A stretch of DNA of 64,000 nucleotides from contig CAVOZP010000006.1 of the NCBI GenBank assembly GCA_963700995.1, forward strand, positions 69,544 through 133,543, written 5' to 3'. Under the pieces are notes generated by a model. That model did no database searches, was not told the origin of the DNA, and saw only the letters and a program-made list of their open reading frames with translations. Position 1 is the stretch's first letter; each line of letters begins with the position of its first letter. Positions 3,007 through 16,250 of this stretch are shown here, one piece after another. The position numbers were made by a program, and so were the translations under genes. The stretch comes from an uncultured Acidimicrobiales bacterium. GTDB taxonomy: Bacteria > Actinomycetota > Acidimicrobiia > Acidimicrobiales > JAHEJN01.

Positions 3007-3155
3007 CATCCCATCCGCCATCCCATCTACTCCACGGGATTCGCGTCACCAGCCGGACGGGGCATCACGGGATCGCACGGTTTCGCAGCTCCTGGGCGGT
3101 TGTCGGTGTCTTGCCAAGGTTGAGGTCGCCGGTTCGAACCCGGTCATCCGCTCCA
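3007..3155 (+). repeat. tRNA-Gly(GCC) 3'-half-containing repeat, copy 1
   Basis: About 150 nt shared by eye with 9750-9898 and 16004-16152. Bases 3110-3155 (CTTGCCAAGGTTGAGGTCGCCGGTTCGAACCCGGTCATCCGCTCCA) match the anticodon loop (GCC), variable loop, T arm (GCCGG/TTCGAAC/CCGGT), 3' acceptor strand and CCA of a tRNA-Gly. No complementary 5' acceptor strand (GCGGATG) or D arm lies upstream and the anticodon stem is mismatched. The repeat starts with the double box CATCCCATCCGCCATCCCATC. Confidence 0.8.
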
Positions 3156-3307
3156 GGTAAAAGCCCAGGTCCCGCCCGGTTTTCCGAGCGGGGCCTGGTG
3201 ACTTTGGGCGCTCATCCCGTCCAGCCATCCCCTCCACTGCAGCTGTTTGCTTGCTGAAGTCCTCACAACTGAGGTAGGCGCTCGAGTGGGCCGGATCGCG
3301 ACACGAT
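3153..3307 (+). repeat. module B repeat, copy 1 (hairpin + CATCCC boxes + 33-nt conserved core)
   Basis: Aligns by eye with 12395-12549, from CCAGGTAAA.. through ..GCGACACGAT. Includes an identical 33-mer TCCTCACAACTGAGGTAGGCGCTCGAGTGGGCC at 3260-3292 and 12502-12534. Confidence 0.8.
3164..3198 (+). terminator. GC-rich hairpin directly after the tRNA-like end
   Basis: CCCAGGTCCCGC / loop CCGGTTTTCCGA / GCGGGGCCTGG. There is no long T tract (I-shaped, as is common in actinobacteria). Confidence 0.5.
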
Positions 3308-3386
3308 TTTCGGAGAATCTTCGATCTCGAACCCAGCAGATGGCTCGCGTGGTTCCGCGATTTTGAGCTTGGCGGGAGCGATGGTT

Positions 3387-4171
3387 TCAACAACCGACGT
3401 AGAGTCCACCTTCGAGGGCCGTTACTGGCGTGTCCTCGTAGCCGGGGGGTAGCGGGACGCTAGCGTCCGTGGGGTCGCCCTCGGGAACGGGAACCTCGCC
3501 GAACCAGGCGAAAAGCCCGGCGAATCCTCCGTTGATGTCGACCGACTGTTCGAGCAGCACAGAGAACGGCAAACCGCATATCTCCGACGCTTTCGGTGTG
3601 AGATCGGGATAGATGCTGCGCAGCTCGGCCAGTGTCGAACCGACGTGAAAGCCTTCCGGGGTCAACAGCGTAATCGGTGAGCCGACACCGACGTAGTATC
3701 CGCGAGGCGCTCGACGCCGTCGCTGCCGACCCACGGGTCGGCGAACACGACCCCCAGTCCCGGCCACTTGACGTAGACGAGGTGAGCCCCTGATCCGTCG
3801 GTGTCCTCGTATGAGGTCGGCTCGCCGAACTGCGCGATGAGCGCGGCTTCAGCGGTGACGCGATCGGTGCCGATCAACACCGAACCGATCCGGTCCGCGC
3901 GGACCTCGGTCGGTGTCGGTGTCGGTGTCGGTGTCGGTGTCGGTGTCGGTGTCGGCGCCCGTGTGGGTGCGGGTGTCGGAGTGGGAGTTGGTGGTGGGGT
4001 GGGCACCGGGGCCACAGATGGCTTCGCCGGCGCCGGGAGCGCGACAGTCGCTGTCGGCGCCGGCTCGACGGCGACATCGGCGCTTTCGGATCCGCACCCG
4101 GGTACGGCCAACGCGGCACCGAGCATCAGCGCGAGCACAACGGCTATCGGTCGGCGAGTCGAGCGCGCCAT
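3387..4171 (-). CDS. lipoprotein with (Thr-Pro)n linker, frame broken near 3700-3730
   Basis: Signal peptide and lipobox MARSTRRPIAVVLALMLGAALAVPGCGS, then a PT-rich linker. Track ORFs 3662..4171 and 3387..3767 join as ..FADPWVGSDGVERL / GYYVGVGSPITLLTPEGFHVG... Confidence 0.65.
3910..3955. repeat. hexanucleotide tandem repeat (GTGTCG)x7 encoding the PT linker on the minus strand
   Basis: Seven perfect GTGTCG units from 3913 (the plus-frame track ORF reads SVSVSVSVSVSVS). Confidence 0.9.
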
Positions 4172-4729
4172 AACGACACCCCAATCTCAACTGCACTCGA
4201 ATCATCCCGACGGCGATACGCCACCGGTAGAGGCCAAGGTCAACAGTGCGTGGCCGGCCACCTCGTAGGACCAACGTTGTGCGCTCAGCCGCTTCGGCTG
4301 TAGTGAAGTCCTGAGGTTTGGAGGCCGCTGCTGCTGCCTGGCTTTCCGCAGGTGGCTGAGCGGCCCAGTCGCTCCAGTGCTGGCTCCGCTCCGCCAGCCA
4401 ACGGCGTCGAACGGACAGGCGTGGATGTCACCGGTGGGCGGGTCAGAGAGCGTCGCTGTCGGGGGATTCGCCTATCCCATATGTCAGCCGATATTCGGTA
4501 TCGGATGCGTGTCACGGTTCGAACGGGGAGCACCACGTCGCACGGCTCGAGTACGGGATGGATCTCGGCCCGGGTGAGGCGTGGCTCGTTCGTCAGTAGT
4601 CGCAGGACGTGTTCGTCTAGAGATCGAACGAAGAACGTCGAGCAAGGGTTTGAGTGTGGCCACCAGCCAAGTCGCAACACTCGTATGGTGTCGTTCGGTA
4701 AGGAGTCGTTGCCAAAGGAGTGCTCGCAG

Positions 4730-6037
4730 ATGACCGCCCCACTGGCCCACGGGAGCAGCCGGCAACCCCAACCGCCGCTGCCTCACTGGGACGCCACTCC
4801 CACCGACCTCAAGGCCGCGATCCGGGAGGTGAAGGTCGCAATCCGGGCACGCATCGAAGGCTCCGGTCGCACGGTCGAGCAGGTGTTCGCCGCTGTCGAG
4901 GAACGGATCGCCGAACGGGTCGCTGAGATTCGGGCCAATGGGGTTCGGGGCGAGAGTCCGTGGACAGTGATCGACTTCGACGACATCGCGAACGGCGCCG
5001 TCACAACGGGACAGTTCGTACATCTCCGTCGGAGCGGTTGCCTCGTCGTGCGCGGTCATTTCCAACGCGACCAGGCGTCGCGGTGGGACGCTGAGATCGT
5101 CGAGTACGTCGAGTCGAACGGGTTCTTCGACGGCTACCGCGGTCCGGGCGACGACTTCTTCGGCAGCGTCGGCTCGAGGCCGGAGATCTACCCGATCTAC
5201 TGGTCCCCCGCCCAGATGGAAGCGCGCCAGAGCGAACGAATGGCCGCCGTGCAATCCTTCCTCAACCACCGCTGGGCCTTCGAGTCCAACGGGGTGCGCT
5301 GGTTCGACCCCGACCGCCACGCGCTGTACCCAGACCGCATCCGCCGCCGCCCGCCCGGTACCGACTCGGCCGGGCTCGGCGCCCACGCCGACCCGGGCAC
5401 GCTCGACCTGTGGATGACCGACGCCTACCAATTGGCCTTCCGGCACCTGTTCGACGGCACCATCGAGGGCTACAACCCCTGGGACGCATCCCACCGCACC
5501 ACCGGGCCCCAGTACCCCGGATCCACCATGTGCTCGGCGTTCCGCACCTTCCAAGGCTGGACCGCGCTGTCGGACATGAACCACGACCAAGGCGTGCTCC
5601 ACGCCGTGCCGATCCCGCACGCCATCGCCTACCTCCTCCTGCGACCACTTCTCGACGACGTCGCCGACGACGACATGTGCGGCGTCACCGTCAACCAGGT
5701 GTTCCCCATCAACCACACCTGGCACCCGCTCCTCCTGGAAGCCCTCAGCCCGATCCCCGACGTCCGCGTCGGAGACTCAGTCTGGTGGCACTGCGACATC
5801 ATCCACGGTGTCGCGCCTGTCGAGAACCAACAGGGATGGGGCAATGTGATGTACATACCCGCCGCGCCGTGGTGTTCCCGCAACGAACAGTACGCCACCA
5901 GCGTGCGCAACGCCTTCCTCACCGGATTCAGCCCCACGGACTTCCCCGACGAACACTACGAGAGCACCTGGACCAACCGATTCCAACCCGAACAACTCAA
6001 CGACATCGGACGACACGGTCTCGCACTCGAATCCTGA
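4730..6037 (+). CDS. DUF1479 (YbiU-like) family protein
   Basis: Start moved to ATG 4730, which has AAGGAG about 10 nt upstream. Length and motifs recall E. coli YbiU-type proteins (..YWSPAQMEARQ.., ..GLGAHADPGTLDLWM.., ..WWHCDIIHGV..). The 126 upstream codons of the track ORF are Arg/Ser-rich. Confidence 0.75.
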   Translation: MTAPLAHGSSRQPQPPLPHWDATPTDLKAAIREVKVAIRARIEGSGRTVEQVFAAVEERIAERVAEIRANGVRGESPWTVIDFDDIANGAVTTGQFVHLRRSGCLVVRGHFQRDQASRWDAEIVEYVESNGFFDGYRGPGDDFFGSVGSRPEIYPIYWSPAQMEARQSERMAAVQSFLNHRWAFESNGVRWFDPDRHALYPDRIRRRPPGTDSAGLGAHADPGTLDLWMTDAYQLAFRHLFDGTIEGYNPWDASHRTTGPQYPGSTMCSAFRTFQGWTALSDMNHDQGVLHAVPIPHAIAYLLLRPLLDDVADDDMCGVTVNQVFPINHTWHPLLLEALSPIPDVRVGDSVWWHCDIIHGVAPVENQQGWGNVMYIPAAPWCSRNEQYATSVRNAFLTGFSPTDFPDEHYESTWTNRFQPEQLNDIGRHGLALES

Positions 6038-15176: not shown

Positions 15177-15412
15177 ACACCGCAATCGACAGTGGCCAAG
15201 GTGACGGCGCCGATGCTCGCGGACTACTAGGCGGGTGGCGCCGAGGTTGGTGACGTCGCGGATCTCGGCCGGTAGGGAGTTTGAGCGCCCTGGAGTCGAC
15301 CGTCCTCCGGTCCGTGTCGGTCGGGTCGGTTCAGCAGAAGCCGCCAAAGATGAGGCAGCCCGCTCGGCCGCTGACGATTGTGGCAATGGCATGAACGTGG
15401 CATAATTATGGC

Positions 15413-15653
15413 ATGGCTCGTACTCGACTCAGCACCACCGTGGACGGCGAACTCCTCGAGACGGCACGAAGGGTGCGGACGGGCGGGACCGACGCCGAGC
15501 TCATCGATGAAGCATTGCGGGCACTGGTTGCGCGCTATCGCGCCGCGGAGATCGATGGAGCCTACGATGCCCGCGTACCGCGCTCATCCCATCGACGAGC
15601 CAGACGAGTGGGGCGATCTCGCATCGTTCCGCGACGCATCGGCAGCGACATGA
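15413..15653 (+). CDS. ribbon-helix-helix type II antitoxin (MazE-like), frame broken near 15565-15575
   Basis: [48 protein letters not shown] / [26 protein letters not shown]. The stop overlaps the toxin ATG (ATGA at 15650-15653). Confidence 0.65.
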
Positions 15654-15978
15654 CGGATCTGCCGAGGCGCGGCGAGCTGTGGTGGTGCGAACCACCCGAG
15701 ATTGGCCGACGACCTGTGGTGGTGCTGTCGCGCGATGTTGTCATCCCAATGATGAGGCGCGCGCTCTGATCGCGCCGTGCACGACGACCATTCGAGGTTT
15801 GCCGAGCGAAGTCGTCCTCGAACCTGGCGACGAGCCGATCGGACGTCGAAGCGCCGTCAACCTCGACTCGGTCGAATCGGTGTCGATCGCCGTGCTCGTC
15901 GAGCGAATCGGCGCGCTCAGCGGAGAGCGTATGCGTCAGATCTGTGGCGCGCTGGAAGTCGCGACCGATTGCGAATGA
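15650..15978 (+). CDS. mazF: MazF/PemK-family endoribonuclease toxin, frame broken near 15745-15765
   Basis: [33 protein letters not shown].. / ..[66 protein letters not shown]. Confidence 0.75.
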
Positions 15979-15991
15979 CGACTTGGTTCCC

Positions 15992-16250
15992 CGGGCACGA
16001 TCTCATCCCATCCGCCATCCCATCTGCTGCACGGGTTCCGCGTCACCAGCCGGACGGGGCAACACTGGATCACACGGTTTCGCAGCCCCTGGGCAGTTGT
16101 CGGTGTCTTGCCAAGGTTGAGGTCGCCGGTTCGAACCCGGTCATCCGCTCGCAAATACGCAGGTCACGGCCACTTTTGGCCGTGACCTGACGCGTGGGCA
16201 GATTGGCGTCATCCCATCCGCGTAACTTGACACCTGCAACATGGCGCCGC
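15992..16250 (+). repeat. tRNA-Gly(GCC) 3'-half-containing repeat, copy 3 (long form)
   Basis: Collinear with copy 2: box from 16004, tRNA-like half 16107-16149, hairpin, single downstream box TCATCCCATCCGCGTAACTTGACA. Begins about 14 nt after the MazF stop. Confidence 0.85.
16160..16189 (+). terminator. perfect 13-bp hairpin after tRNA-like end
   Basis: Same CAGGTCACGGCCA CTTT TGGCCGTGACCTG as at 9906-9935. Confidence 0.6.

Follow-up and report, generated by a model that had tools for sequence, protein, structure and literature searches.

What process could have left three direct repeats, each carrying the 3′ half of a tRNA-Gly gene followed by a hairpin, on one contig of an uncultured Acidimicrobiales bacterium? 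The repeats lie in a window of 64,000 nt, by which we mean the whole stretch of DNA analysed (contig C6:69544-133543 of a 58%-complete metagenome bin with 2.52 Mb in 17 contigs). A sequence-only reading had proposed either (a) that related islands had accreted in tandem at a tRNA-Gly located left of the window, the conserved 100 nt upstream of each tRNA half being the arm of the element, or (b) that the repeats are a tRNA-mimic RNA or an element of the 3′ untranslated region (UTR). The first proposal was borne out by an intact tRNA-Gly gene, by the recurrence of the arm and by an integrase-bearing element in a relative (G241). It is very probable that the three units represent attachment (att) site junctions of integrative islands inserted serially into tRNA-Gly(GCC), and the most likely reading of the stretch from the tRNA to window position 26746 is that at least three islands accreted there in tandem. 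This reading would account for a strain-variable region of about 28 kb, including a TIR/RyR defence-like cluster, and the stretch is accordingly read here as a tRNA-Gly integration hotspot. The process itself is well known; the Acidimicrobiales are a little-studied order, known almost only from metagenomes.

All three copies are located on the plus strand just 3′ of a plus-strand gene or operon, and each is followed by a strong hairpin, as had been described. The common stretch of about 150 nt was recovered as a repeat family of 231 nt (2994-3224, 9737-9967 and 15991-16221; 71, 100 and 92% identity) with spacings of 6743 and 6254 nt. Copies 2 and 3, which had been taken to extend to about 270 nt (units 9738-10007 and 15992-16250), do show similarity running to about 10007 and 16250. 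The tRNA-Gly 3′ half is a 43-nt string, CTTGCCAAGGTTGAGGTCGCCGGTTCGAACCCGGTCATCCGCT, which is present without mismatch at 3110-3152, 9853-9895 and 16107-16149. This core, written CTTGCCAAGG...GGTCATCCGCT, is identical to the 3′ part of the real tRNA-Gly(GCC), and copy 1 also encodes CCA.

Each unit comprises a 103-nt P arm, the 43-nt core and a P′ arm consisting of a strong hairpin and further CATCCCATCC-like boxes. The P arm starts with a double box, CATCCCATCCGC/CATCCCATCT, the second box continuing as CATCCCATCT(A/G)C. Two types of P′ arm exist, A after copies 2 and 3 and B after copy 1, and CATCCCATCC double boxes are found in the P arm as well as in both P′ arm types. With at most one mismatch, the CATCCCATCCGC box occurs seven times in the window (0.99 expected; 0 of 100 shuffles reach 7), and no exact copy exists outside these sites in the 2.5-Mb assembly. 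The hairpins after the core range from -31.4 kcal/mol (copy 1) to -32.9 kcal/mol (copy 2), with z-scores of -4.6 to -7.5. BLAST of the unit against its own genome detected a fourth full unit on contig C12:2705-2862. Across the four partial tRNA copies the cores are identical at 43 of 43 positions and the double box is invariant, while the P arm varies at 15 of 103 positions (Fisher p=0.006). The arms differ by 4-13% between copies, and the exact repeats comprise the 43-nt core and the 30-nt hairpin.

The intact tRNA-Gly postulated to the left of the window was located by ARAGORN in the whole genome. It is a tRNA-Gly(GCC) on the plus strand at C6:68435-68509, corresponding to window -1108..-1034 and thus 1.0 kb left of the window. 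In the BLAST search, the unit gave a 44-nt match of 100% identity at C6:68466-68509 besides the unit on C12. The copies thus repeat, in direct orientation and without mismatch, the 3′ portion of an intact tRNA gene nearby on the same strand, as expected of a tRNA-targeted island. An A-type downstream arm also follows the intact gene. The hairpin after the core is the tRNA gene's own downstream hairpin, carried within the element's copy; in other families of the order, too, tRNA-Gly is followed by hairpins of this kind. Outside the window, ARAGORN called “tRNA-???” at two places of 94 nt, each with an anticodon of 2 nt (C6:200590-200683 and C7:6919-7012), and at one place with an anticodon of 4 nt (C4:108202-108296), all of which may be tRNA-like repeats or false calls.

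Read from the tRNA, the order of the array is tRNA-Gly/A arm – island 1 (4.0 kb) – P·core·B – island 2 (6.7 kb) – P·core·A – island 3 (6.3 kb) – P·core·A – variable segment. The interiors of the islands are unrelated to one another, which argues for independent insertions and not for duplication. Taken together, identical cores, varying arms and unrelated interiors point to diverged elements, each of which would have recombined with the same resident tRNA. A solitary B-type arm in island 3 (12392-12549) is probably the decayed junction of two older islands; in the related metagenome genome L069, the sequence that adjoins this arm on the left is followed, after about 200 nt, by a full P arm with core.

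Comparison within the genus delimits the region. Nucleotide synteny of about 90% identity with two same-genus genomes (G001 and G002) begins only at window position 26747, and the sequence preceding this point in G001 is unrelated. On the left flank, synteny with G002 reaches a contig end of that genome about 1 kb short of the tRNA. Both genomes lack the stretch from the tRNA to 26746, and the variable region thus measures about 27.8 kb. In a genome of the same family (G005), the sequence downstream of tRNA-Gly showed no match to this genome. Farther right, within synteny of 90-93% identity, about 1.9 kb (33236-35155) are also missing from both same-genus genomes, representing a small insertion or deletion.

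The arm is not confined to this locus. In a set of 60 relatives only the tRNA half was shared, apart from one same-genus genome in which a piece of the P arm is found where a contig ends. A scan for the double box, covering one genome per species, yielded 74 loci; at 13 of them, in 12 Acidimicrobiales assemblies, the tRNA-Gly 3′ half starts exactly 103-104 nt after the box. The unit is known, beyond the window, from the C12 copy and from 13 units in 12 other Acidimicrobiales assemblies. Conservation over 16 aligned units is 0.95 for the double box and 0.98 for the tRNA core, compared with 0.70 for the central arm. The same double-box arm, at the same spacing, is also joined to tRNA halves of the Val-CAC type (L061, L075 and L120) and the Arg-TCT type (L119), so the arm appears to be re-used across tRNA target genes. 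As far as comparison with the literature shows, the CATCCCATCC box together with its 103-nt arm constitutes an undescribed family. Its signature, consisting of the double CATCCCATCC box, the spacing of 103-104 nt and the tRNA 3′ half, can serve as an att signature for small Acidimicrobiales islands, both to delimit them and to pair them with integrases in fragmentary assemblies.

A cognate integrase stands beside the att site in three of these relatives (G241, G016 and L098); none was detected in our 58%-complete genome. The clearest case is G241, in which a 124-kb contig carries tRNA-Gly, a B-type hairpin, the double box, an integrase, an M78/DUF4411 pair, a 730-aa open reading frame (ORF) and a P arm with core. 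The latter lies 7.0 kb downstream and closes the element that opens with the integrase. This integrase is intact (380 aa; PF00589 at 1.6e-21, plus SAM-like and central domains), and the layout of hairpin and boxes between tRNA-Gly and integrase matches that of the B arm in the window (3156..3308). On a 3.6-Mb contig of G016, tRNA-Gly and boxes are followed by a truncated integrase of which only the start is left; about 20 kb further on, a P arm with core and boxes precedes another integrase, which is frameshifted and 61% identical to that of G241. In L098, boxes are located directly upstream of an integrase after the 3′ end of another tRNA. Another genome contains three arms with mutated Gly cores within 4 kb, as predicted by accretion followed by decay.

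A third type of downstream arm, with inverted boxes (GGGATGGGATGGCCTGGTCAG), was observed in L062, L073, L080 and L097. At least in L097 and L073, a minus-strand ORF has its 3′ end directly at this arm; the ORF of L097 is an AAA_14/DUF4143 ATPase gene according to Pfam. L073 and L097 also have 286-aa ORFs next to arms, which were considered as AbiE-type toxins and were not confirmed as such by Pfam.

These data suggest the following course of events. A tyrosine integrase of the G241 family would bind with its N-terminal arm-binding domain to the CATCCCATCC boxes of both arms and with its catalytic domains to the core, and would recombine the attP site (P-core-P′) of a circular island with the tRNA gene or with one of the cores that the array already contains, the crossover presumably taking place inside the core. 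Insertion would rebuild the tRNA and leave a partial copy at the far end. The P′ arm would be made up of boxes and of a hairpin copied from the tRNA terminator, and each junction would combine the right-end P arm of one island, the 43-nt core and the left-end P′ arm of the next. Repeated insertions could in this way have stacked at least three islands (4.0, 6.7 and 6.3 kb) and a fourth variable segment. The toxin-antitoxin pairs beside the P arm probably stabilise the islands.

The islands themselves lack such an enzyme. The genome's PF00589 matches all lie outside the window, in agreement with the sequence-only reading, and none is found between the tRNA and 26746; the only match on contig C6 (2340-2891) adjoins a tRNA-Pro. 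Pfam annotation of the island ORFs revealed no recombinase, relaxase or transfer gene, small or unannotated ORFs not being excluded. Remnants of an integrase after the downstream arms were sought by tblastn with the integrases of G241, G016 and L098, without a match between the tRNA and 26746. A frameshifted tyrosine integrase at C12:12935-14369, 10 kb from the C12 unit, was discarded as a candidate, being not homologous to that of G241; it runs into a SnoaL-like domain. The surroundings of the fourth unit (C12:1-14400; L043) form a mosaic of an M28 peptidase, an ArsR/AHSA1 pair, IS256-family and IS110-family transposases and RCC1-repeat ORFs. An intergenic stretch of about 90 nt (C12:3086-3173), which follows the B arm directly, is 90% identical to window 15241-15329, between the RCC1 and VapB genes.

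Several known systems invite comparison. Among tyrosine integrases of actinobacterial phages, attB sites overlap tRNA genes with cores of at least 25 bp, and phage L5 uses tRNA-Gly (PMC9262239). The present case resembles L5-type tRNA integrases in the targeting of the tRNA 3′ part, in a common core of about 40 nt which rebuilds the tRNA, in short boxes repeated on both sides of the core in the manner of arm-type sites, and in the PF00589 and SAM-like domains of the relatives' integrase. It differs in that the islands contain neither integrase nor phage genes, in that no cognate integrase was detected in the genome, and in the sequence of the putative binding boxes (CATCCCATCC) and of the 103-nt arm.

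Cis-mobilizable elements (CIMEs) have kept their att sites, have lost the integration genes and are stacked by accretion (PMC5704250). Like the CIMEs related to ICESt1/ICESt3 of Streptococcus thermophilus, the islands are flanked by att sites, are devoid of integration genes and stand in tandem at the 3′ end of a target gene, with internal junctions which are chimeric att sites. Islands 1-3 each have a core with arms on either side, corresponding to attL and attR, and the fourth segment is without a right site. Differences concern the phylum and the target gene, the lack of a partner integrative and conjugative element (ICE) or integrative and mobilizable element (IME) in the 58%-complete assembly, and the arms of several islands, which are cut short at one common point, a pattern suggesting that these islands spread once the integrase had been lost. 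Our islands resemble CIMEs; they would be movable only with an integrase from another element.

In Dehalococcoides, ssrA islands are arranged in tandem 3′ of a single small-RNA gene, bounded by repeats of its 3′ end and associated with the serine recombinase DsiB; some of them lack an integration module and were proposed to be cis-mobilizable (PMC3146451). Several tandem islands, direct repeats of a 3′ end and a conserved motif just upstream of the repeat are common to both systems. The Dehalococcoides islands have a 20-bp repeat, a tmRNA gene and a serine recombinase, in contrast to 43 nt of tRNA-Gly, a 103-nt arm and, in relatives, a tyrosine integrase here. The present case is a new family within the known kind of tRNA-targeted, accreted islands.

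Some findings weigh against serial insertion as proposed here. The sequence stems from a metagenome assembly, and at the right edge of the variable region no terminal attachment site can be recognised, the unit giving no significant local alignment there. A decayed site was considered at 26600-26760, where a single CCCATCCCATC and a GGCCAAGGT string occur, and was rejected on an ordinary alignment score (p ~0.2). No cognate integrase was detected in this assembly, which at 58% completeness does not show its absence; what comes closest to the G241 integrase is 30-35% identical and located beside other tRNAs, and the two same-genus genomes likewise gave only matches of 32-35%, beside other tRNAs and without boxes. 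Furthermore, P′ arms of the same type mostly end at one shared nucleotide (three of type B and four of the five of type A), with different cargo beyond, which independent decay of each island does not predict. Finally, a related metagenome contig carries tRNA-Gly and the A arm with no integrase in the next 2.9 kb, for which reason the A arm may be a fixed or native flank rather than the arm of an element. Both the shared arm ends and this contig fit either a spread of integrase-less islands or an A arm fixed as lineage flank.

The shared ends also bear on a further possibility, namely that the islands are still active as integrase-less cassettes: multi-gene modules with complete attP-like sites, which an integrase acting in trans would regularly excise, shuffle and insert anew, so that an integron-like array is formed at tRNA-Gly. 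All internal junctions have a P-core-P′ site in full, with boxes and cores perfectly kept and the rest of the arm varying. The same end, consisting of TacAT, P arm and core (93-96% identical), has an A arm as its partner in the window, a B arm on C12 and a further arm in L069; junction partners are shuffled exactly at the unit, which likewise speaks for site-specific insertion and against duplication. In L069, two units are separated by 4.66 kb in which no integrase lies, and toxin-antitoxin genes recur beside the P arm (twice here, and in L069, L080 and L116). However, a trans-acting integrase was identified neither in this genome nor in the genus, cores decay in other arrays, the junction at 12392-12549 is without a core, and the toxin gene of the C12 copy is truncated to 52 codons. 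Accretion and subsequent decay, together with homologous exchange between arms, can yield the same patterns. We regard ongoing mobilization of this kind as rather unlikely.

A related and equally tentative idea is that the CATCCCATCC-box arm with its tRNA core is a portable Acidimicrobiales module, whose toxin-antitoxin-anchored, integrase-less islands with complete attP-like sites might have spread once their integrase was lost and might be shuffled in trans, the arm being re-used with other tRNA targets (Val-CAC and Arg-TCT). If the islands were mobile in trans, they would represent a cassette-like system for the exchange of multi-gene modules. Integron arrays and Xer-dependent dif modules likewise hold integrase-less modules between recombination sites at one locus, often with toxin-antitoxin genes. 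The likeness exists only if the speculative idea of active cassettes is accepted, and integrons differ in having an IntI-type integrase with attI, a cassette promoter and single-ORF cassettes with a folded attC at their end. The sites described here are attP-like with a tRNA core, and the modules comprise several genes on both strands in 4-6.7 kb, with no integrase at the array. The array is a member of neither the integron nor the Xer-dif family.

Without any serial site-specific insertion, homologous recombination or gene conversion among copies of a long native tRNA-Gly flank (core plus A arm) might also have produced the repeats. The A arm after the intact tRNA, both here and in the integrase-less contig, would fit this, as would the hairpins after tRNA-Gly in several families and the att-site identity in G241, which likewise extends about 75 nt past the tRNA. 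Such a native flank would leave the P arm unexplained, which is unrelated to the tRNA 5′ half and to the upstream flank, is maintained at a constant distance in different families and terminates the integrase-bearing element of G241. The A arm itself holds the integrase-associated boxes, and copy 1 and the C12 copy have a B arm with encoded CCA, like the tRNA locus of G241. We consider this explanation very unlikely.

It is also highly improbable that the array exists in no single genome and was created by joining contigs of different strains at a short shared repeat. The origin from a 58%-complete bin of 17 contigs, and the frequent breaks of relatives' contigs at these units, speak for such an artefact. 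Comparable layouts of a tRNA with a second copy in G016 and G241, each on a single contig, speak against it, and since the exact repeats are short and the arms diverged, assemblers should resolve the copies.

The remaining proposal, a tRNA-mimic or 3′-UTR processing RNA which would be cotranscribed with the upstream operon, end at CATCCGCT(CCA) and direct processing or stability through a tRNA-like fold, would suit the same-strand position of each unit 3′ of an operon, the genuine T arm and acceptor 3′ strand and the following hairpin. It can be dismissed almost entirely, since there is no cloverleaf, no covariation and no excess of folding energy. ARAGORN found no tRNA in the window, and Rfam nothing at gathering score and, around copy 2, nothing at E<=1; the upstream 103 nt thus yield no cloverleaf, as had been anticipated from their failure to form a 5′ acceptor strand or D arm. 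The RNAalifold consensus of 16 family members reached -14.6 kcal/mol, its covariation term being -0.2, and contained 0 compensatory pairs, all helices lying in invariant or tRNA-derived columns, and the 149-nt unit folds worse than its own shuffles (z of +1.0 and +2.0). Moreover, the core always equals the sequence of the resident tRNA, and the repeated box, the most conserved part, also occurs downstream, inverted in relatives and upstream of integrase genes, which is the behaviour of protein-binding DNA sites.

The features of the array and the cargo genes are compiled in Table 1.

Table 1. Att-site units, islands and cargo genes of the tRNA-Gly array, in window coordinates.
Feature	Position	Strand	Remarks
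Island 1, right part	1..3006	no strand	left end at C6:68510, directly 3′ of intact tRNA-Gly(GCC), outside window
Alpha/beta hydrolase (island 1)	452-1669	+	Pfam
ORF without assigned function (island 1)	2421-2990	+	
P arm copy 1	3007..3109	+	starts with double box CATCCCATCCGC CATCCCATCTAC; boxes invariant; 91-96% identity to other P arms
Core 1	3110..3155	+	exact 43-nt tRNA-Gly(GCC) 3′ part, anticodon loop to discriminator base, then CCA
B-type P′ arm	3156..3308	+	hairpin ~3164-3198; degenerate boxes CATCCCGTCCAG 3213-3224 and CATCCCCTCCAC 3226-3237; conserved 52-mer 3256-3307
Island 2 cargo	3309..9749	both strands	Pfam
Gig2-like dioxygenase-type protein (island 2)	4352-6037	+	Pfam
Glyoxalase-fold protein (island 2)	7026-7928	-	Pfam
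MarR regulator (island 2)	7792-8352	+	Pfam
TacA antitoxin/GNAT toxin pair (island 2), just before P arm	within 8607-9680	+	Pfam
P arm copy 2	9750..9852	+	
Core 2	9853..9895	+	exact 43-nt tRNA-Gly 3′ part
A-type P′ arm copy 2	9896..10039	+	hairpin CAGGTCACGGCCACTTTTGGCCGTGACCTG 9906-9935; boxes CATCCCATCCGC TGTCCCATCCGC 9956-9979
Island 3 cargo	10040..16003	both strands	Pfam
DinB-like protein (island 3)	10989-12251	-	Pfam
Solitary B-type P′ arm	12392..12549	+	hairpin, boxes and 52-mer; without P arm, without tRNA core
RCC1/thrombospondin-repeat protein (island 3)	12720-15176	+	Pfam
VapB-like antitoxin (island 3), near P arm	15413-15769	+	Pfam
MazF/PemK-like toxin (island 3), just before P arm	15679-15978	+	Pfam
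P arm copy 3	16004..16106	+	
Core 3	16107..16149	+	exact 43-nt tRNA-Gly 3′ part
A-type P′ arm copy 3	16150..16250	+	hairpin 16160-16189; single box 16210-21, second box deleted
Fourth variable segment	16251..26746		Pfam; synteny with G001 and G002 resumes at 26747
Split thiamine pyrophosphate (TPP) enzyme, TIR-domain proteins, TrkA/RyR protein	within 16251..26746		Pfam

Some of the cargo genes show peculiarities. In the toxin-antitoxin locus of island 2, a single reading frame contains both the TacA-like antitoxin domain and the GNAT (TacT-like) toxin domain, uninterrupted by a stop; the two may be fused, or translation of the toxin may begin inside the frame (VTRQYLRP..., like that of the free-standing homologue in L116). 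The TPP-dependent enzyme of the fourth segment is distributed over two overlapping ORFs, with the N domain at 16307-17080 and the C domain at 16833-17927, and is likely a frameshift or a pseudogene. Finally, a tandem run of the hexanucleotide GTCGGT at 3897-4004, within a minus-strand ORF, encodes a low-complexity linker.

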